Part shown: positions 16,904-64,000 of the stretch, piece after piece
How positions within the stretch are numbered: position 1 is the stretch's first letter
Layout: each line of letters begins with the position of its first letter
Source of the DNA: Candidatus Latescibacterota bacterium
GTDB lineage: Bacteria; Latescibacterota; UBA2968; SICM01
Assembly: GCA_965217865.1 (NCBI GenBank)
Contig: CBDCJO010000002.1
Coordinates: 1,920,001 to 1,984,000 of the forward strand
DNA: 64,000 bases
Direction: 5' to 3'
Notes under the pieces: generated by a model
What the model was told of the DNA's origin: nothing
The model's input: the letters and a program-made list of their open reading frames with translations, nothing else
Databases searched by the model: none
Translations under genes and position numbers: made by a program

Positions 16904-16978
<75 letters not shown>

Positions 16979-35003: not shown

Positions 35004-35151
35004 AAACCGGTCGTTCATTCCCCTTGTGTGGAGGGTGGAGTGATATACGAAGCCCTCCGGGACCCCGACTTGTCCCTGACCCTGAGAAGATGAGGGGTCG
35101 TCCCATTTTTCATCTTGCGAAACAGGGGGGGTTTGAGTAGTTTAAATTCAA

Positions 35152-35329
35152 CAAGGGTAGAGGCGCAGTCCTTCATCAGTACCCGGCAGAGGAGGCGGTC
35201 CAATCTGCCGTGAGAAAGGGAGGGATTGCCGAAGCCTGACGTCCATTCCGCCGCGACGCATCAGGCTGGGCCAGCGGATAAGATTCGCTGGACTGTCACA
35301 GGGTAAAAGTCCTGTGGAGCGCTCTCTTG
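35152..35329 (+). promoter_or_regulatory. lysine riboswitch aptamer
   Basis: Ordered consensus blocks AGAGGCGC, AGTA, GAAAGGG, GCCGAA, CTGGG, GACTGTCA, GGAGCGCT; P1 CAAGGG/CTCTTG; directly upstream of asd. Confidence 0.9.
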
Positions 35330-35356
35330 TAGTTCGACAAACGCCGTTATTGAAGG

Positions 35357-50425: not shown

Positions 50426-51946
50426 TGAAGAACTACCTTTCAACGCACATAAACGGAAAAGACGCCTGGAGTGCGGGTCAGATAAATCAAGGTAAGGAGA
50501 TTGAGCAGGAGACGCTGATAAGAGGTTAAAAAGGTGACCGAGGGCAGCAAACGTGATTGTAGGACGAGCAGTAGACGCTGCAAGGCCTTGGCCAGGTCCT
50601 GGAGGGCCTTCGGAGTACCTACGCCCATCACTTTGCGCATGAGCAGAGCCAGGTTGCAGCCCCCGATGTGGATCAGCAAACGCTTGAGGATATTGCCGCG
50701 GTCTCTCAAGTGCAACCTGCGCATGCCACCGGTATCATATGTGTGAGCGATGGTTCTTTCCACCCGTTCTGCACGACTTCGGCGCAAGGCCTTGCCGCGA
50801 TCTCCCTTGATCCGGCGTCGATTCGCATATACCGCGGCCTGCTCATCTCGTCGGCCGTTCCACTTGCGGCGTCCCCGATCCGGTTCTGAAATGTAACTCC
50901 GGATGCCGCCTTGCTTCAGACTGGTCAATACATCGTTGCTATGATATCCTTTGTCCGCAACCACCTCCCGTATACGCTGTCTGTGCAAACGCTTAGCAGC
51001 TTTTTCGTCCTTCGCGACCTGCTTGAGATTGAGCTGCGCCTCGAGCAGCGTCCAGGACAACGACTCGGTATCTCCTTCATCTGCTCCCGACAACGCCACT
51101 GCCACAATGGCATTGGTGTCCAGATCCACCGCGTGCTCCACCTTGTGCGCCATGTGCGTGCGACCGTCCTTCATCTTAGCGATCTTGGCATCCGGGTCGT
51201 GCGGGTGCTCCCAGTCCTGGTTCGATCCCTTCTTCGGTCGCTTCTTATCGATCTTGGACAAGTCCTCGCGGGTAGGCGTTTCAATGCCCGAGGCCTTGGC
51301 CAGATTCTCAAGGAATGCCTGGTAGCCTTCACCCGTGTCACGGCGTACAATGCTGCGCATCGCGGCGTTGGCCTCCAGTGTCGTAGCATCCACGCCCAAC
51401 GTCTTCCCCTTCACCAGACCCGCTTTGCACAAGACCCTCAGGATCCACTTGAAAACCGCTTCGTGAACTTCCAAGGGAAGCCGATGCCGGATGCGAGACA
51501 GGCTGGAATGATCCGGGGTCTGTTCGTCAAGGGCATACCCCAAAAACCGGCGCAACGTCAGCGAGTCAGATACACGCCATTCGATCCCACGTTCCGAATC
51601 AAGTCCCTCGAAATACCCAATCAAAAGCATCCGAAAATAAACCCCGGGCGGAATGCCCTTGCGACCCATATGAGGAGCGTAATACCGCTGGCAAAGCCCT
51701 TCGACGAACTCGTCGAACCCGTTCGCCTCCAATACCTGATTCAGCTTCTCGTAGAACGGATGACCCAGAGATTTCACCAAAGTGTTCGATGCGATGAACA
51801 CGTTTTCCTGTCTCTGTCGGCCTCGTTTTCCCATTGCCATTTGCTCGTCCTCCCTTCTCAGTTTGAACCTGATATATCATAGGACCAAACCACAAGGAAA
51901 GACAACAGTCATCTTGGCATAAACGCACTTTTTCAACAGGCTGCTA
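50426..51946 (-). mobile_element. IS1182-like insertion sequence, copy 1 (one terminal IR truncated)
   Basis: Near identical to 56320-57851; ends TTTTTCAACAGGCTGCTA at right but lacks TAACAGCCCGT at left. Confidence 0.88.
50440..51840 (-). CDS. DDE transposase (DUF772 + DDE, IS1182/IS5-like)
   Basis: GR..IPP, SERGI, PDHSSLSRIR, VDAT, DPDA, ADKGY, VER. Confidence 0.92.
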   Translation of the reverse strand: MAMGKRGRQRQENVFIASNTLVKSLGHPFYEKLNQVLEANGFDEFVEGLCQRYYAPHMGRKGIPPGVYFRMLLIGYFEGLDSERGIEWRVSDSLTLRRFLGYALDEQTPDHSSLSRIRHRLPLEVHEAVFKWILRVLCKAGLVKGKTLGVDATTLEANAAMRSIVRRDTGEGYQAFLENLAKASGIETPTREDLSKIDKKRPKKGSNQDWEHPHDPDAKIAKMKDGRTHMAHKVEHAVDLDTNAIVAVALSGADEGDTESLSWTLLEAQLNLKQVAKDEKAAKRLHRQRIREVVADKGYHSNDVLTSLKQGGIRSYISEPDRGRRKWNGRRDEQAAVYANRRRIKGDRGKALRRSRAERVERTIAHTYDTGGMRRLHLRDRGNILKRLLIHIGGCNLALLMRKVMGVGTPKALQDLAKALQRLLLVLQSRLLPSVTFLTSYQRLLLNLLTLIYLTRTPGVFSVYVR

Positions 51947-52395: not shown

Positions 52396-52710
52396 GCGAT
52401 TCTCCTTTCTGTCTGAAAGTGGCCGTGTTCGCTGAAATCGAACCTATCTCGAATTGATGGGATCGGCTCTTGTATTCAGCAGGCCACCCGACATGGGGGT
52501 TCTGCCTGAGTGTTGACGTGGAAGAAAGTTAAATAAAAATCGAGGATTTTCAAAGTGAATCTCCCCGTCCAAAGGGCGGGGCTTCTAACTGCTTAAACCA
52601 AACAGATCAAGCTGTTGAGGATCTTTTCTTCTCTTGACGAGCTCTCGTCAAGAGGTGTGTAAAAAAGGTCAGGCGGCCAGCTTCTTCCCCGAGTCGAAGG
52701 GGAGCTCTCT

Positions 52711-52903
52711 GGTCTATCCCCGCGTGTGCGGGGGAACCATTAGGCCAGGAATATCGTCAGTAACTCGCCCGCCTCTATCCCCGCGTGTGCGGGGGAACCT
52801 TCCACTGAGACCTCATCACCTTCGCATCGTAGGGTCTATCCCCGCGTGTGCGGGGGAACCTTGACAAAAAAGTAACCCGGGGATTTATCATGGGGTCTAT
52901 CCC
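52711..52903 (-). CRISPR. type I-E-like CRISPR array: 3 full repeats, 1 truncated repeat, 3 spacers
   Basis: GGTCTATCCCCGCGTGTGCGGGGGAACC at 52711, 52772 (CC variant) and 52833, with truncated GGTCTATCCC at 52894; strict 61-bp period; reverse complement resembles the E. coli I-E repeat. Confidence 0.93.
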
Positions 52904-53335
52904 AGGGCCGAGGCTCTTTCACGCGGCAACAGCAAGACCGAAGGTTTCACATCCCGCGTCGTGCCGGTGCCGGAAAGGGCAGTGTCGCTGTTTTCGTCGG
53001 TAACCGCCGCGACACTATCCAAGGCGCAGATGGATGAGATCAAAGGGTTCGACGCGGCGTTAAGGAACGCGCTTGCGTTGATGGCTGCGGGCGGTGAACG
53101 AGATGCTGTCAAGAAGGACCATTATGCTCATGCCGCCCCGGCGTGTACGCGATTCGACCGCGCCGCAGACCGGCTATTCTTCCCCAGCCTGTGGCGGCGA
53201 TTCACGGTTGATTCGCAAGGCGACGACGCGGTTTTCAAGGCCAAATACACCTTCCTCGACGATTTAATGAAAGCGGCACGGGCAGAGTTGAAAGCCGCCC
53301 TGCCCGCAATTCCCTGCACCGCCATTCACCGGCCG
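52904..53335 (+). pseudogene. cas8e: C-terminal fragment of type I-E Cas8e (Cse1/CasA)
   Basis: AEALSRGNSKTEGFTSRVVPVP...FFPSLW...ALPAIPC resembles the Cse1 C-terminal region; directly abuts a I-E array. Confidence 0.65.
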
Positions 53336-53509
53336 GCTTTCCGCCTATCGGATCTGGCGGTTCATCCAGGTCAATCACGGCCTCGACTCCCAGGGCGCGC
53401 TGATCGAAACCAGCGGGCAAGGCGCGTAGATCCCCTCAAAGAGTGAAGGTTCTCAGGTGTCTCCAGTGTTTTGTCGGAAAGTCGAAGAAGGTGAGCATTC
53501 GATCCCAGT

Positions 53510-56319: not shown

Positions 56320-57851
56320 TAACAGCCCGTTGAAGAACTACCTTTCAACGCACATAAACGGAAAAGACGCCTGGAGTGCGGGTCAGATAAATCAAGGTAA
56401 GGAGATTGAGCAGGAGACGCTGATAAGAGGTTAAAAAGGTGACCGAGGGCAGCAAACGTGATTGTAGGACGAGCAGTAGACGCTGCAAGGCCTTGGCCAG
56501 GTCCTGGAGGGCCTTCGGAGTACCTACGCCCATCACTTTGCGCATGAGCAGAGCCAGGTTGCAGCCCCCGATGTGGATCAGCAAACGCTTGAGGATATTG
56601 CCGCGGTCTCTCAAGTGCAACCTGCGCATGCCACCGGTATCATATGTGTGAGCGATGGTTCTTTCCACCCGTTCTGCACGACTTCGGCGCAAGGCCTTGC
56701 CGCGATCTCCCTTGATCCGGCGTCGATTCGCATATACCGCGGCCTGCTCATCTCGTCGGCCGTTCCACTTGCGGCGTCCCCGATCCGGTTCTGAAATGTA
56801 ACTCCGGATGCCGCCTTGCTTCAGACTGGTCAATACATCGTTGCTATGATATCCTTTGTCCGCAACCACCTCCCGTATACGCTGTCTGTGCAAACGTTTG
56901 GCAGCTTTTTCGTCCTTCGCGACCTGCTTGAGATTGAGCTGCGCCTCGAGCAGCGTCCAGGGCAACGACTCGGTATCTCCTTCATCTGCTCCCGACAACG
57001 CCACTGCCACAATGGCATTGGTGTCCAGATCCACCGCGTGCTCCACCTTGTGCGCCATGTGCGTGCGACCGTCCTTCATCTTAGCGATCTTGGCATCCGG
57101 GTCGTGCGGGTGCTCCCAGTCCTGGTTCGATCCCTTCTTCGGTCGCTTCTTATCGATCTTGGACAAGTCCTCGCGGGTAGGCGTTTCAATGCCCGAGGCC
57201 TTGGCCAGATTCTCAAGGAATGCCTGGTAGCCTTCACCCGTGTCACGGCGTACAATGCTGCGCATCGCGGCGTTGGCCTCCAGTGTCGTAGCATCCACGC
57301 CCAACGTCTTCCCCTTCACCAGACCCGCTTTGCACAAGACCCTCAGGATCCACTTGAAAACCGCTTCGTGAACTTCCAAGGGAAGCCGATGCCGGATGCG
57401 AGACAGGCTGGAATGATCCGGGGTCTGTTCGTCAAGGGCATACCCCAAAAACCGGCGCAACGTCAGCGAGTCAGATACACGCCATTCGATCCCACGTTCC
57501 GAATCAAGTCCCTCGAAATACCCAATCAAAAGCATCCGAAAATAAACCCCGGGCGGAATGCCCTTGCGACCCATATGAGGAGCGTAATACCGCTGGCAAA
57601 GCCCCTCGACGAACTCGTCGAAGCCGTTCGCCCCCAATACCTGATTCAGCTTCTCGTAGAACGGATGACCCGGAGATTTCACCAAAGTGTTCGATGCGAT
57701 GAACAGGTTTTCCTGTCTCTGTCGTCCTCGTTTTCCCATTGCCATTTGCTCGTCCTCCCTTCTCAGTTTGAACCTGATATATCATAGGACCAAACCACAA
57801 GGAAAGACAACAGTCATCTTGGCATAAACGCACTTTTTCAACAGGCTGCTA
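56320..57851 (-). mobile_element. IS1182-like insertion sequence, copy 2 (complete)
   Basis: Imperfect terminal IRs TAACAGCCCGTTGAAGAA / TAGCAGCCTGTTGAAAAA. Confidence 0.92.
56345..57745 (-). CDS. DDE transposase (IS1182/IS5-like)
   Basis: 466 aa, differs from copy 1 at four residues that I could see. Confidence 0.92.
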   Translation of the reverse strand: MAMGKRGRQRQENLFIASNTLVKSPGHPFYEKLNQVLGANGFDEFVEGLCQRYYAPHMGRKGIPPGVYFRMLLIGYFEGLDSERGIEWRVSDSLTLRRFLGYALDEQTPDHSSLSRIRHRLPLEVHEAVFKWILRVLCKAGLVKGKTLGVDATTLEANAAMRSIVRRDTGEGYQAFLENLAKASGIETPTREDLSKIDKKRPKKGSNQDWEHPHDPDAKIAKMKDGRTHMAHKVEHAVDLDTNAIVAVALSGADEGDTESLPWTLLEAQLNLKQVAKDEKAAKRLHRQRIREVVADKGYHSNDVLTSLKQGGIRSYISEPDRGRRKWNGRRDEQAAVYANRRRIKGDRGKALRRSRAERVERTIAHTYDTGGMRRLHLRDRGNILKRLLIHIGGCNLALLMRKVMGVGTPKALQDLAKALQRLLLVLQSRLLPSVTFLTSYQRLLLNLLTLIYLTRTPGVFSVYVR

Positions 57852-57853
57852 GA

Positions 57854-59684
57854 CCTAAAATAAGCGAATAGGCTTGTTGAGCGGTGTGTTATACAAGATT
57901 TCGGAGCATTTCAGACTTGTGACTTGGTGGAGATGATGTCTGGGCTGTTTTTGTGATTGTTTCGGCATGCGATTGTCTAATTAACTGAGTTTGCGGACGT
58001 GTTTTAGCCGGGGTGGACGGACTTGTCCCTGTGATGTTACGACGACAGGTGCTGACATGGCAGTCAGGCCGGTTTGAGCCATCTGATTCTGTTCCAGGCC
58101 GGGAAGAAGTCAGTCATCCACCGGTTGTAGCCCAAGACACGATAGATGATCTGTCTTCCCCGGGTCACGATCTGGCAAGGGATCCAGATCAGATTCTGGA
58201 GGAAGGCGCGAAACTCCATTCTCAGAAGTTGATCGCGACGCTCACGCTTTCGGATCATCAACGCGAACCAGGCTTTGAGGTTCCACGCCAGGGCGGTCAT
58301 GACCATGTAAGCCCAGTTGCTCATCAGGTTGTCGACGGGCATCCGCATGGCGTTGACCCCGTTCTTGAGTTGTTCAATCACGTTTTCCTGATCGCACCGT
58401 CCATTGGCCAGCCTCACGATTTCCGCGGCCGTAAGATCTTTTCGGGTGGTAATGTAGAAGAAACAGCGCTTGTCATCGAACAGGGCGTTTTCGCCGCGTT
58501 CGACGCTCAGGTTCTTTTCGAGGATCACGAGTCGACAGGTCTTCCTGCATCGAGCAGGACGATACGAAACCCCGGCAACACGTTCACTGGCAAGTCGGAT
58601 GTTTTTGAAGCCGCGCTCCCGGATGATCCGGGCTTTCACGTTCTCGCGTTTCTGTCTCTGGGAGGTCTTGACCTGGTATTTGGGTTGTCGTTCAAAGGGC
58701 TCCCAATCGCTCTGTGACAGGGATTTGGCGATCTTGACCAATCCCCGGTAAGCATCCATGCCGAAGACGAAGTCGACCTTTTCCGACCAACGATCGAAGT
58801 GCCGGGTGAGTGAGAAGCCGGTGTCTCCGCGCAGGCAGATGCGTTTGGCGAAAGGGGCGACCAGCGCGATGGCGCGATCGATCCACTTTACGGCACCGTC
58901 GTGGCTGGGCACATTGCCGGGTCGATTCACAAGAAACAACACCTCCCTGGTGTTCGCCAGAGAGACCACGAGAGGATGGTATCCCCAGATACCGTTGTAT
59001 GACAGGGCCATGCCCTGCTTGCGTTCTCCGAGGGTGGTGGCCAGGGTGCCGTCGATGTCGATGAGGGCTTCTTTGAGTTCGCCCCTGGCGCGCTTTTTCC
59101 AGATCCGGGTGCGCACCCGGTTGATGCAATCCATCAACGTCTCGATATCCGATGGCCGGAAACGACGTGTAAAGTCGCCTGCTGTGGTCGGATCCGGGAG
59201 ACGCTGAGCGCCCAAAGCGTTCAGGAACGTGGCATCCTGCCGGCGCAGCTCAATGTCTTCAAGGCGTTGACCACCAACCAGCGCATTGTAGGCGATGTTC
59301 AGAACGTGGTCTGATTCGTGACAGGGCAAATGCACTTTCAAAAGATGAAGATGACGGTCAATCTCTTTCACCAGCCCAACCCTGCGGACCATGTGGTGAA
59401 ACGCGCCGATCCCCCCACACGTGATCGCCTCGGCCTTCCCACTTATCTCGTAGTGGATGTTTCCCCCAGACATCATAGGCTTGACCTGACTGCACCACTG
59501 CTTCCGACGCAAACGACGGACAATTCGTGCTTCCCTGTTCCGAAGAATCTTCCTGTATTCTCTCATCTGAAATGCCCCTTTTGATGGCCTCTTTTTGTCT
59601 TTCATACTACAACTATAGGCCTGAAAACTGGGGCATTTCAACTTTTTTCTACTAAAACCAAGAAAAATTCACGCTTGTATAGGG
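57854..59684 (-). mobile_element. IS1380-family insertion sequence
   Basis: Transposase plus imperfect IRs CCTAAAATAAGCG / CCCTATACAAGCG; boundaries approximate. Confidence 0.8.
58064..59566 (-). CDS. IS1380-family transposase
   Basis: PDPTTAGDF, IDIDGT, GYHPL, NRPGN, LRGD, RCDQENVIEQLK, LAWNL. Confidence 0.92.
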   Translation of the reverse strand: MREYRKILRNREARIVRRLRRKQWCSQVKPMMSGGNIHYEISGKAEAITCGGIGAFHHMVRRVGLVKEIDRHLHLLKVHLPCHESDHVLNIAYNALVGGQRLEDIELRRQDATFLNALGAQRLPDPTTAGDFTRRFRPSDIETLMDCINRVRTRIWKKRARGELKEALIDIDGTLATTLGERKQGMALSYNGIWGYHPLVVSLANTREVLFLVNRPGNVPSHDGAVKWIDRAIALVAPFAKRICLRGDTGFSLTRHFDRWSEKVDFVFGMDAYRGLVKIAKSLSQSDWEPFERQPKYQVKTSQRQKRENVKARIIRERGFKNIRLASERVAGVSYRPARCRKTCRLVILEKNLSVERGENALFDDKRCFFYITTRKDLTAAEIVRLANGRCDQENVIEQLKNGVNAMRMPVDNLMSNWAYMVMTALAWNLKAWFALMIRKRERRDQLLRMEFRAFLQNLIWIPCQIVTRGRQIIYRVLGYNRWMTDFFPAWNRIRWLKPA

Positions 59685-59830: not shown

Positions 59831-62062
59831 ATGGATCAGCATCACGAAAAACAGGAACAACTTCGAATACAAAGGTTAGAGATGCTCGCTGACGTCTGGG
59901 GCAGGATTTACCTTTTTCACCCGAGCATCGTGCGCAGCGAAATAAATATCGATTGGTACCGAACTCTGATCGAGGTTATTCCAAGGGTGGAAAATGCAGA
60001 AGATACGGAGGAATTAGTTGGGGTTTTGAACGATATTTTCCTCAAGCCCTTGAACGATCCATTTACGCTTGCGCTGAGATCCGAGGAAAGCAATTCGTCG
60101 GCGGAACATCGTACCCAGCAGAAATTGAGTTATAAGAGGCTGACAGATTCACTGGGTCATATTTCCATATCGAACCCAATGATCGCTGAAGATCCCAATA
60201 GCCTGAATGAGTTCCAGGAAGCTGTCAAGGACATGGAATCTGCTGAAGCACTCATACTGGATTTACGCTGCCACGGCAATATGCCCTTTTCCTCCTACTA
60301 TGATGTCTTCCTACACTTTTTCGTTGACGTACCGATTCACACTGGCTCACGTTTGTCACGTGTTCGTCAGGGTTGGAGCGAAACGGAAGGAGGCGGCGTT
60401 TATGATCAGAGATGGGATATTCAGAATGGCGTCGTTTTGGATCCGATCCAAAAGGTTGAGCGGTTGGCAAATCGACACACAAAAACAGAATTAGAGAAGT
60501 TGGTAACAGTCCGTAAGCCAACAGTTTTTATTGTGAACAATGCTTCCTGCTTTCATCTTTACCATAGTTTGGATGCATTGCAAGCAAAGCCTGAATTCGC
60601 CGTAATTTGGGAGAAGAAGGGGCGCTTGGCGACCTCTGGAATTGGCATGTTGAAATATCCTGAAGGCGTTGAGGTTTACCTGAATAGTGAACTCCTCATT
60701 TCTCACACTAATGAATTGGGCTTCAAGCCGGATTTCACCACGGAGGATCCAATCAGTGAAGTGGAGCTCCCCGAACTAGCAAGGCGGATTTTGGTAAATA
60801 AGAGCCAGAAGGCGAACTCAGAAGGATCACCGCTTTCTTATCAGATGCAGTTTCCATTGCCTGATTCGGTTTCTACAGAGCCTATTACGCGGGGAAAACG
60901 GCTTCTGGGCCTGTTCAAAATCTGGAACGTCCTCAAATACTTTTACCCGCATCTGGAATTTGTCGACATCGTCTGGGCAGAGATGCTGAAGGAATGGATC
61001 CCCAGAGTTGAATCCACCGAAAGCTTAAAAGACTATTATCTCTCCATCGAAAACCTGGCGGCAAAATTGAACGACAGCCATGTAAGGGTCTCGCACGAGA
61101 GTATACGAGGCCCTTCGAGTGGCTTCCTCCCAGTTCGATTGGCACGCGTGGAGGAAAAGGTAGTCGTAGTTGAAGTCAAGAGGGAGTCACCAGTGAAGCT
61201 TGGCGACGAAATCCTTGAAATGAACGGTAAAACCACACAGGAGATTGAAGATCTCTGGCGATCGCGAATCTCTGCTTCTACGAAGCAGGCATTTTATCGT
61301 GATGTTTACCGCTCATGTTTAGCCGGTGAGATAGATAAAGAGGTCAGATTGACTGTCAGACGAGAGGGCACTATAAAAACCATTTCCATCAAACGGCGGG
61401 GGTTTGACCCGCCAAAGGCAAGAGAGGGTTCCAAGCGCCTTCCACAGAAAATCGGCTACATCAACCTGGAAGTCATTTCCAACAATGAAGCCTTAGATGA
61501 GGCTTTTGACAATCTCAAAGATACCGATGGCTTAATTCTGGATGTGCGTGGCTATCCAAACCTTTTTGTTCAGGTTGAAGTAATAAGCCGCGTGTGTGAT
61601 CGTCCTGTCCGATCAATGATCTGGGAAATTCCACTTGTGAGAAATCCTGGTTGGCCCCTGGAATGGTTAGAGACCACTTGGTCAAAGGGACAGGCTCTTG
61701 TCGAACCCCATGAGAGAATGAACTATGCAAACCCTATTGTGGCTCTGATTGACGAACGCACACAGAGTAAGGCAGAAGATTTTTGTATTTACCTCACCAA
61801 TGCCAGGCGCGCCACATTCGTGGGTTCAGGCACAGCGGGTACGGATGGAGATGTGACGCTTCTCCAATTGCCAGAAGGTGGTGTTTTTCGGTTTACAGGA
61901 ATGAGAGTCCTATTTGATGATGGCAAACGCTTTCAAAATATCGGCATTGTCCCTGACGTGCAAGCCACGCCAACCGTTCAGGGCATAATTGAGGGGCGTG
62001 ATGAAGTCCTTGAAAAAGGAATCGAAGCGTTAAGGGAGTTGATTCAGAAAAATCTGAAATGA
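59831..62062 (+). CDS. S41 family peptidase with PDZ domain
   Basis: LNDSH, GDEILEMNG, LILDVRGYP, TQSKAE, TAGTDG, GIVPD; duplicated N-terminal S41-like module. Confidence 0.9.
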   Translation: MDQHHEKQEQLRIQRLEMLADVWGRIYLFHPSIVRSEINIDWYRTLIEVIPRVENAEDTEELVGVLNDIFLKPLNDPFTLALRSEESNSSAEHRTQQKLSYKRLTDSLGHISISNPMIAEDPNSLNEFQEAVKDMESAEALILDLRCHGNMPFSSYYDVFLHFFVDVPIHTGSRLSRVRQGWSETEGGGVYDQRWDIQNGVVLDPIQKVERLANRHTKTELEKLVTVRKPTVFIVNNASCFHLYHSLDALQAKPEFAVIWEKKGRLATSGIGMLKYPEGVEVYLNSELLISHTNELGFKPDFTTEDPISEVELPELARRILVNKSQKANSEGSPLSYQMQFPLPDSVSTEPITRGKRLLGLFKIWNVLKYFYPHLEFVDIVWAEMLKEWIPRVESTESLKDYYLSIENLAAKLNDSHVRVSHESIRGPSSGFLPVRLARVEEKVVVVEVKRESPVKLGDEILEMNGKTTQEIEDLWRSRISASTKQAFYRDVYRSCLAGEIDKEVRLTVRREGTIKTISIKRRGFDPPKAREGSKRLPQKIGYINLEVISNNEALDEAFDNLKDTDGLILDVRGYPNLFVQVEVISRVCDRPVRSMIWEIPLVRNPGWPLEWLETTWSKGQALVEPHERMNYANPIVALIDERTQSKAEDFCIYLTNARRATFVGSGTAGTDGDVTLLQLPEGGVFRFTGMRVLFDDGKRFQNIGIVPDVQATPTVQGIIEGRDEVLEKGIEALRELIQKNLK

Positions 62063-63169: not shown

Positions 63170-63337
63170 ACAGAGGGGAACCGGCGCATAACACATATTA
63201 AAGGCCCCGGGTCAAGAAAAAAAGACTCCTCCATCACGATTTTCACCGTTTTTTTGCGACCCTAACGTTCGGGGCGTGCAATGAGCCGATCCGAAGAGGT
63301 TTGGCGATGTTCGGATCTTTGTCAGTCGTCGGTCTGA

Positions 63338-63693
63338 CTTGATTTTCACAAACCGGGCTAGATGTGAGCCATCTGCACCAAACACGTATCGGGAATCAAG
63401 CGCCTCTCACGGTATACTGTGGAGCGCCCTGGGAGAGGCATTGTCCTCTCCCTCCAGAAAATAATCGGTACCCCTTGAGTCCCAATCAAGAAGGATGGCT
63501 GTTCTCCCCTTTTATGAGGGGGAACGCCAGTTAGGTTCGGGTTCATCGCGGGGGCAGACGGACTGACTGTCTCAGATCCGCTCATCTATGTTCTAAATAA
63601 GGGGTGAAGGCGGCTTCCCAATCAAGCCGATGAGCTGGGCTATTGTCCGGACGTTGCCCTGCCAGTTAGGCGCCGGGTTAACCGCCCCACCCA
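63338..63693 (-). ncRNA. candidate bridge/seek RNA with three guide-like loops
   Basis: Three CCCG-(N8-9)-TGG modules; two share CTTGATTGGGA; N8-9 segments match the flanking target and the element end. Confidence 0.7.
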
Positions 63694-64000
63694 TTATGCT
63701 ACAAACCGTTTCTCGTCGAATGCCTGGCCGTTTTTGAGCATTTGGTAGGCGGCCACGCCGAATTTGTGAGCGATGACGCTCTTGGCTTTTCCCGGACCTT
63801 GTTTGCTTTTGAGCTTCTCGTAGTATCTATTGATCGGTTCTGACCATCGCTGGGCGACGAGGATGATTTCTGAGAAGGCCCACTTTAGGTGTGGGTTGCC
63901 GATTTTGTTATTCCCGTCCTTTGTCTTCTTTCCAGCGGACTCTCTCTCGACTTTGATCAGCCGGCTGTAGGAGGAGAAGGCTGAAGCGGATTTGAACCGT
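63694..64000 (-). CDS. IS110-family recombinase/transposase, C-terminal part
   Basis: Not in ORF track. Manual translation RFKSASAFSSYSRLIKVERESAGKK...KIGNPHLKWAFSE...AKSVIAHKFGVAAYQMLKNGQAFDEKRFVA*. Confidence 0.92.
   Translation of the reverse strand, partial: RFKSASAFSSYSRLIKVERESAGKKTKDGNNKIGNPHLKWAFSEIILVAQRWSEPINRYYEKLKSKQGPGKAKSVIAHKFGVAAYQMLKNGQAFDEKRFVA

Follow-up and report, generated by a model that had tools for sequence, protein, structure and literature searches.

An intact 1,632-bp IS110-family element, IS1111-like in layout and of an ISGsu4-like lineage, has its right end at 63194-63693 of the window (the whole stretch of DNA analysed here, 64,000 nucleotides from a Candidatus Latescibacterota bacterium). 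Judged by sequence comparison, this right end is a real, family-wide variant of a known mechanism, in which the first of two target-type loops (T1) likely picks the insertion site. The RNA predicted from it would comprise two target loops and a donor loop and, in the reading towards which we lean with modest confidence, T1 selects the site whereas the second target-type loop (T2), folded together with the donor loop, serves excision. The element ends, the TG core, the six guide strands, the helices and the covariation of the T1 and donor guides and of their handshake dinucleotides, as shown by sequence and comparison among relatives, are very probably correct.

The element and its recombinase

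The genome carries about a dozen copies of the element (13 left and 12 right ends), in two subtypes, A and B, which are ~94.5% alike, full subtype-A copies being 1,632 bp long. All 13 left junctions read flank-TG-left end and all 12 right junctions read right end-TG-flank, with TTA following the TG core in 10 of the latter. In the window, the last base of the element is 63194 (minus strand) and TG follows at 63193-63192, in agreement with the end near 63193 proposed in an earlier, sequence-only reading of this DNA. That reading had also proposed a shared GTT core. Nevertheless, an unoccupied near-twin (row 5003617) of an attC site that is occupied by another copy (3242718) bears a single TG at the insertion point, from which it follows that the core is TG; together with the left junctions, this empty site rules out both GTT and GT, and the TT of the third guide-like string in that reading is a handshake dinucleotide.

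The left end, upstream of the gene, measures 88 nt and the right end, downstream of it, 500 nt, which is the layout of the IS1111 group, and the sub-terminal inverted repeats (9 bp, within the 7-17 bp range of such repeats) are placed 9 nt and 5 nt from the core, a geometry that is kept in relatives. In a circle, the -35-like hexamer of the right end (Table 1) would sit 17 nt from a GATATT hexamer in the left end, the two forming a candidate junction promoter.

The full recombinase, read from the genome, has 347 residues and the two domains of IS110 recombinases, PF01548 and PF02371 (DEDD RuvC-like and Transposase_20), with a match to NF033542 of 188.7 bits (cut-off 140) and structure matches to PDB 8wt6 and 9t56 (E ~1e-7). 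The catalytic D-E-D-D and serine of the IS110 family were placed by motif at D15, E61, D99, D102 and S267, the alignment to the IS621 structures taking in only the last three; in IS621 the residues are D11/E60/D102/D105/S241 (accessible text of PMC11208158). The IS1111 label comes from the layout, the protein tree (73 proteins) being one without a named IS1111 reference. A plasmid protein annotated as "ISGsu4 family" is 35% identical to the recombinase, and its element has the same three-loop right end, with a T1 that matches its own site.

One subtype-B copy (G000:C2:370698-372331) is inserted 2 nt early, at a TGTG repeat preceding the R' box, and its T1 3' guide fits the unshifted register. 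Elsewhere in the window there are two near-identical genes for 466-aa transposase-like proteins (50440-51840 and 56345-57745), another transposase-like gene (58064-59641) and a CRISPR repeat-spacer-like stretch (52634-52864) adjoining what, from the translations of the open reading frames, gives the impression of a Cas-like gene fragment (52961-53446). Rfam places a lysine riboswitch at 35150-35332 and a tRNA at 16904-16975. Downstream of the right flank of the element, a 743-aa protein (59831-62062) resembles an S41-type peptidase.

Table 1. Features of the right end and its junction, in window coordinates.
Feature	Position	Strand	Sequence or pairing	Basis or remark
R' box of the interrupted attC-like site	63186..63192	minus	GTTATGC	left half of the site beyond the element, G000:C2 ~1984826-1984950
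Core dinucleotide, right junction	63192..63193	minus	TG	junction comparison, empty twin site
Right sub-terminal inverted repeat	63199..63207	minus	GGGCCTTTA; partner TAAAGGCCC 9 nt inside the left end	
-35-like hexamer	63210..63215	minus	TTGACC	spacing kept in relatives
Internal sequence	63258..63266	minus	GTTAGGGTC	complementary (8/9) to the T2 5' guide
Helix enclosing T2 and donor loop, 3' arm	63306..63336	minus		
Donor loop 3' guide	63381..63389	minus	ATACG + core TG + handshake TT	third CCCG-N-TGG string
Donor loop 5' guide	63457..63465	minus	ATTATTTTC	complementary (7/9) to core G and left end
T2, second target-type loop, beside the donor loop	63469..63556	minus		T1-trained covariance model, closing-stem test
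T2 3' guide	63485..63495	minus	TCCTTCT + core TG + handshake AT	
T2 5' guide	63530..63538	minus	GAACCTAAC	
Helix enclosing T2 and donor loop, 5' arm	63555..63585	minus		
T1, free-standing target-binding hairpin, 91 nt, directly after the stop codon	63602..63692	minus		fold with guides open, stem covariation (40 rows)
T1 3' guide	63621..63631	minus	ATCGGCT + core TG + handshake AT	
T1 5' guide	63665..63673	minus	GCGCCTAAC; pairs with core G and right flank (attC R' box)	
IS110 DEDD recombinase gene, 3' part	63694..64000	minus		start codon beyond the window, G000:C2:1984737

Target sites

The element targets attC-like sites, entering their R' box at a TG core. Among the 10 copies for which both flanks are at hand, six show clear attC-like R''/R' boxes and an inner paired stem, and three are not attC-like by the test used, one of them apparently lying within a gene. 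The copy at G000:C2:2534053 is found in apparent coding sequence with no attC hairpin, which suggests that a sequence match alone can suffice for insertion.

In the window copy, the R'' box has been displaced by the remnant (right end) of a second IS110 element (G000:C2 ~1984950-1985344, just outside the window), so that this attC was struck at both ends. The second element is present at nine other places (e.g. 3464210-3466050), where it inserts directly after the R'' box (TAAC) of similar attC sites; the copy read at 3466050 seems frame-shifted near its end. A 394-bp upstream repeat, considered as a miniature element, was rejected as such, being the right end of another IS110.

Integron integrases cross over at the G of the attC R' box, and elements landing in this box would presumably inactivate the attC site and freeze the cassettes. 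No integron integrase scored above the cut-off of TIGR02249 in this genome (96% complete). The best match is a frameshifted tyrosine recombinase (G000:C2:1657175-1658360), with a gap over model positions 180-235, of which an identical C-terminal fragment lies at 4999306-4999473, near an attC cluster; it is possible that this protein is an atypical integrase for these attC sites.

Loop anatomy of the right end

The three CCCG-N-TGG strings, the CTTGATTGGGA repeats and the stem around the first string, from which the sequence-only reading had started, are all present on the minus strand, the strings at the coordinates given there; when the right end is shuffled with its dinucleotides kept, three such strings turn up once in 2000 shuffles (mean 0.14 per shuffle). 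The wider pattern, CC-N-guide-TGG, is that of both strands in each loop; with its three loops (T1, T2 and the donor loop) the right end has six strands of this kind, every 3' strand finishing with the core TG and two further bases, the counterpart of the IS621 handshake guides. The three strings are not the equivalent modules that they had been taken for: the first two are the 5' strands of target loops, and the third, rejected as a further homologous 5' strand, belongs to the donor loop as its 3' strand, and the 5' partner of that strand, ATTATTTTC (63465-63457), had been overlooked. The broader proposal, a bridge-type RNA in which the donor loop is single and the target loop, reading GTTRRRY attC cores, is duplicated and diverged, is well supported as a prediction, the arrangement being kept, and covarying, in relatives.

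T1 has the two guides of a bridge RNA target loop, pairing both strands around the core, and its handshake, AT, repeats the dinucleotide with which the left end begins after TG; the donor loop has two guides pairing the ends of the element. With two target-type loops, the right end departs from the canonical form of one target and one donor loop. From the donor 5' guide, T1 lies 145 nt away and T2 41 nt away (medians).

The complementarity of the internal GTTAGGGTC to the T2 5' guide may be due to chance. In the close clade, the T2 5' guide fits the internal right-end site somewhat better than shuffled pairings do (6.07 vs 5.64, 16/3000 shuffles as good), and the right ends of the close relatives L003, L083 and L026 hold such a sequence at 7-8 of 9; neither of the other two groups shows the pairing (1427/3000 and 445/3000). 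Since this was one of 28 such tests and the other two groups lack it, we keep it as a lead only.

Guide covariation among relatives

We found 160 related loci, at 33-73% identity; in the phylum, one other genome of 167 was retrieved at E 1e-60. The right end was called in 103 loci (copies in the genome itself counted) without using the guides, and 85 entries were parsed: 64 distinct distant loci by alignment, 19 closer loci by hand on motif anchors and the two subtypes of this genome, the guides of the 21 close-clade entries thus being set by hand. Duplicates were left out, as were L004 and L005 (at least three target loops) and L012, L057, L090, L091, L093 and L100 (not parsed by the motifs used). 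The 85 entries comprise 74 distinct guide sets, with targets after the core as varied as TTAGG, ACCCC, GCACC and TCTC. The labels T1 and T2 follow the order of the loops and take no account of fit, and for real and shuffled pairings alike the score of the 5' guide is that of whichever of two registers matched better.

Over the 74 sets, all six guide strands covary with their own target or ends, with 0/5000 shuffles as good. The T1 5' guide matches 5.72 of 7 positions (2.83 shuffled) and its 3' guide 4.12 of 6 (1.74 shuffled); the donor 5' guide matches the left end at 5.32 of 8 (4.40 shuffled) and the donor 3' guide the right end at 4.86 of 5 (3.29 shuffled), each with 0/5000. T2 covaries with the target class overall (4.10 vs 2.69 shuffled, 0/5000), its matches to the target being frequent at positions 1-4 (fractions of 0.81, 0.93, 0.78 and 0.69) and falling to 0.40-0.19 at positions 5-8. 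Among the 29 sets of attC type (those whose T1 ends in AAC) the T2 signal is lost (363 and 1046 of 5000), whereas T1 and the donor guides are still significant. The handshake dinucleotides pair with the non-cognate DNA, as in bridge RNAs: that of T1 is identical to the opening dinucleotide of the left end in 63/70, that of T2 in 7/70, and that of the donor loop to the first two target bases in 63/71.

Because kin are not independent, we also compared 30 non-overlapping pairs taken from a FastTree tree of the 73 proteins (L086 being too short). With T1, the own guide was better in 22 pairs and the swapped one in 3, with 5 ties (p 8e-5); the donor handshake gave 7:0 and the donor guides 7:0 and 5:0 (the latter for the 5' guide), while the T1 handshake, at 3:0, was not significant. 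T2 gave 12:8 with 10 ties (p 0.25), that is, no site tracking. The covariation of guides with targets that the sequence-only reading had called for thus holds for T1 and the donor guides in shuffles and tree pairs and, for T2, in the whole set but not in the tree pairs. As only T1 tracks the landing site across relatives, T1 and T2 likely do different jobs. Additionally, T2 stayed clade-typical in L053 and L047, where T1 has been retargeted, so pairing between T2 and the occupied site is not obligatory.

The main rival explanation, which we consider rather unlikely, holds that T1 selects the site and that T2 is a structural placeholder, needed for donor-loop folding or dimer loading, with a guide drifting from an ancestral target. 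It would account for a T2 stem and enclosure that are conserved (see below) around guides that do not track sites in tree pairs, for the clade-typical T2 of the two retargeted loci and for the insert that, in the non-attC clade, the T2 3' strand carries after its handshake. A drifting guide is harder to reconcile with a T2 that retains the TG core and the core-proximal matches and that covaries with the target class, or with T2 guides that are unchanged between the two subtypes of this genome.

Guides and occupied sites in this genome

The two subtypes differ at 28 of 502 right-end columns, six of these lying in the T1 guides and none in the T2 guides (Fisher p 1.4e-4). All seven subtype-A right flanks fit the T1 of subtype A (T1A) at least as well as T2, and six of them fit it better; subtype-B sites are few and mixed. 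The T1 3' guide fits the left flanks of the genome loosely (1-5 of 7).

According to the sequence-only reading, both target loops select sites in a "multi-guide" recombinase; on such a view T2 would be a second or back-up address, directing insertion less often. This is improbable in our estimate, even though both guides spell GTTAGG-type cores, one genomic site fits T1A, T1B and T2 equally (7 of 8) and multi-loop arrays do exist (L005 and L004, described below). None of the 12 right and 13 left junctions fits T2 better than the better T1 variant; among 61 relatives T1 fits the occupied site better in 56, with 2 ties, and T2 in 3, each by one base; the T2 handshake seldom matches the donor (the 7/70 given above); and the tree pairs (12:8) do not separate own from swapped T2 guides. 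We therefore dropped T2 as a second address, which junctions, relatives and tree pairs all leave unsupported.

Folding and structural homology

Free folding of the right end yields no open loops, forced opening costs ~5 kcal/mol for each loop, and the donor loop is not recovered by folding even when forced. A CTTGATT/AATCAAG stem that had been drawn around the third string is absent from minimum-energy folds, though it may form. In relatives, compensatory change is seen in 8/8 pairs of the T1 stem (over 40 rows, 82% of cells pair, against 61% after shuffling). Across 58 distant sets, the arms of three helices (the stem of T1, the stem of T2 and the helix that encloses T2 and the donor loop) match their own partners (0/300 swaps as good in each case), without cross-pairing between the T1 and T2 stem arms. 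The short stem of the donor loop gives no covariation signal (279/300 swaps as good), being nearly invariant.

A covariance model trained on T1 finds the T2 of the window as its second match (17.7 bits, E 0.011) and no T2 in any of 28 other loci (E up to 1), which implies that T2 has diverged structurally in most relatives; its homology in distant relatives is argued from motif alignment, stem pairing and guide similarity. The same model finds two T1-like loops in L005 (1050-1305, Chitinispirillaceae), where two near-identical T1 copies accompany T2; L004 (1129-1900, Chitinispirillaceae) has two T1-like loops and a possible degenerate third, besides T2. No Rfam family matched at the right end. 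A U-rich terminator after T1, considered as a family trait, was dropped (7/64 by a crude test).

RNA and circle evidence

One 239-nt contig of a vent metatranscriptome (X2) maps to 63341-63578, inside the unit of T2 and donor loop; this is a weak hint of an RNA, from one study, and the contig may derive from DNA, given that X2 runs into flank DNA. No circle junction was found in the contigs of 8 sequencing runs, contigs being prone to drop rare forms and uncovered parts being uninformative. The sole joint seen in these runs is that of a known internally deleted copy (484 bp, G000:C2:1604236-1604719, recurring in run X14), which keeps both ends, has lost all the loops and sits in an attC; it may be mobile in trans, or the deletion may have arisen where the copy sits.

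In a circle-free direct transfer, T1 would bind the new target and T2 the old flank, as has been proposed for the target-loop-only RNA of CazIS110-1, which cooperates with the full RNA (available part of 10.1101/2025.10.25.684509). The build of T1 as a hard-wired target-loop-only unit and the contigs without a circle joint would suit such a route; we nevertheless judge it very improbable, since the -35 hexamer, conserved with a fixed spacing to the left end, argues for a circle and T2 does not track the flanks.

Comparison with known systems

Bridge and seek RNAs, their right-end location, multi-loop donor guides (PMC11208160) and attC targeting by other IS1111 elements (PMC11187229) are already published; here and below, published systems are described from the accessible parts of the cited sources. 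A layout with two or more target loops was not found in the literature searched, of which figures, scanned and bioRxiv supplements and most subscription papers lay outside view.

Like IS621 and IS622 (ISCro4), the element combines a DEDD+Tnp recombinase with two-stranded target and donor loops, a 2-nt core and the same logic of handshake cross-pairing (PMC11208160, PMC11208158, PMC13626964); unlike them, it has its RNA after the gene, a target read in the opposite orientation, a TG core, donor guides in a multi-loop and a second target loop. With the seekRNA elements ISEc11, ISPa11, ISKpn4 and ISPst6 it shares the long downstream non-coding region and the sub-terminal inverted repeats, as well as the top-strand match 5' of the bottom-strand match, and T1, at 91 nt, falls within the 82-96 nt of the peak seekRNAs (PMC11187229); in what could be consulted of that paper, no second target loop is described for IS1111 seekRNA elements. 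The long RNAs of seekRNA elements measure ~150-170 nt (PMC13604230, Table 1), against a right end of 500 nt here.

Insertion into attC is shared with the IS1111-attC group (ISKpn4, ISPst6, ISPa25), but not at the ISKpn4 position: the ISKpn4 target (PMC13604230, Table 1) reads, on the opposite strand, as the R''/L'' end of attC, whereas here it is the G of the R' box. The ISGsu4 and ISMahy12 proteins (PMC11187229, supplement file 6) share motifs by eye with the recombinase, a likeness judged on proteins, and a search by the name "ISGsu4" found no relevant literature. CazIS110-1 also has a target-loop-only RNA beside its full bridge RNA, there by truncation of the same RNA and here as a separately encoded loop with its own guide sequence (10.1101/2025.10.25.684509).

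A proposed mechanism

If the chemistry of IS621 applies, a recombinase dimer on T1 would open the attC R' box and a dimer on the donor loop would open the circle junction, the top strands would exchange at TG, and the product would be locked in by pairing of the AT of T1 with the incoming left end and of the TT of the donor loop with the target. In the IS621 complex the two loops lie ~80 Å apart and belong to different RNA molecules (PMC11208158). At such a distance the donor loop could be partnered by T1, which lies ~145 nt from the donor guide or might be released as a seekRNA-like piece of ~90 nt, but not in cis by T2, at ~41 nt; and, as split loops work (10.1101/2025.05.14.653916), T1 would act free or on a long tether.

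The most speculative part of our reading, plausible though somewhat short of probable, is that the unit of T2 and donor loop is the form that lets the element leave as a circle. In IS621, handshakes set the direction, with changes that raise insertion lowering excision (PMC13626964); the short, weaker pairing of T2 near the core and its usually non-locking handshakes would, by the same rules, make its unit an excision-permissive form. Against this, T2 does not follow retargeting, the donor-loop handshake also favours insertion and, in IS621, excision is supported by the donor loop alone (PMC13626964). In the window element, moreover, the T2 handshake is AT, the same as that of T1 (one of the 7/70 exceptions), which voids the handshake argument there.

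Implications

Two open questions bear on this right end: how a reaction ~2,000-fold biased towards insertion (accessible text of PMC13626964) can excise at all, and what links seekRNAs that have a target loop only to bridge RNAs with two loops. Because the lineage encodes both forms, with handshakes that differ systematically between T1 and T2, loop deletions and handshake swaps would address both. For engineering, the right end offers a natural split-guide scaffold with a TG core, and natural multi-loop arrays. It is a tentative and rather doubtful proposal that this widespread lineage splits its transposition cycle, a free and rapidly reprogrammed seekRNA-type T1 (expandable into arrays) inserting the element and a conserved T2 of low affinity, tethered to the donor loop, licensing its excision; if true, this split cycle would be a natural direction switch written in RNA, with a seekRNA and a bridge RNA co-existing in one element.
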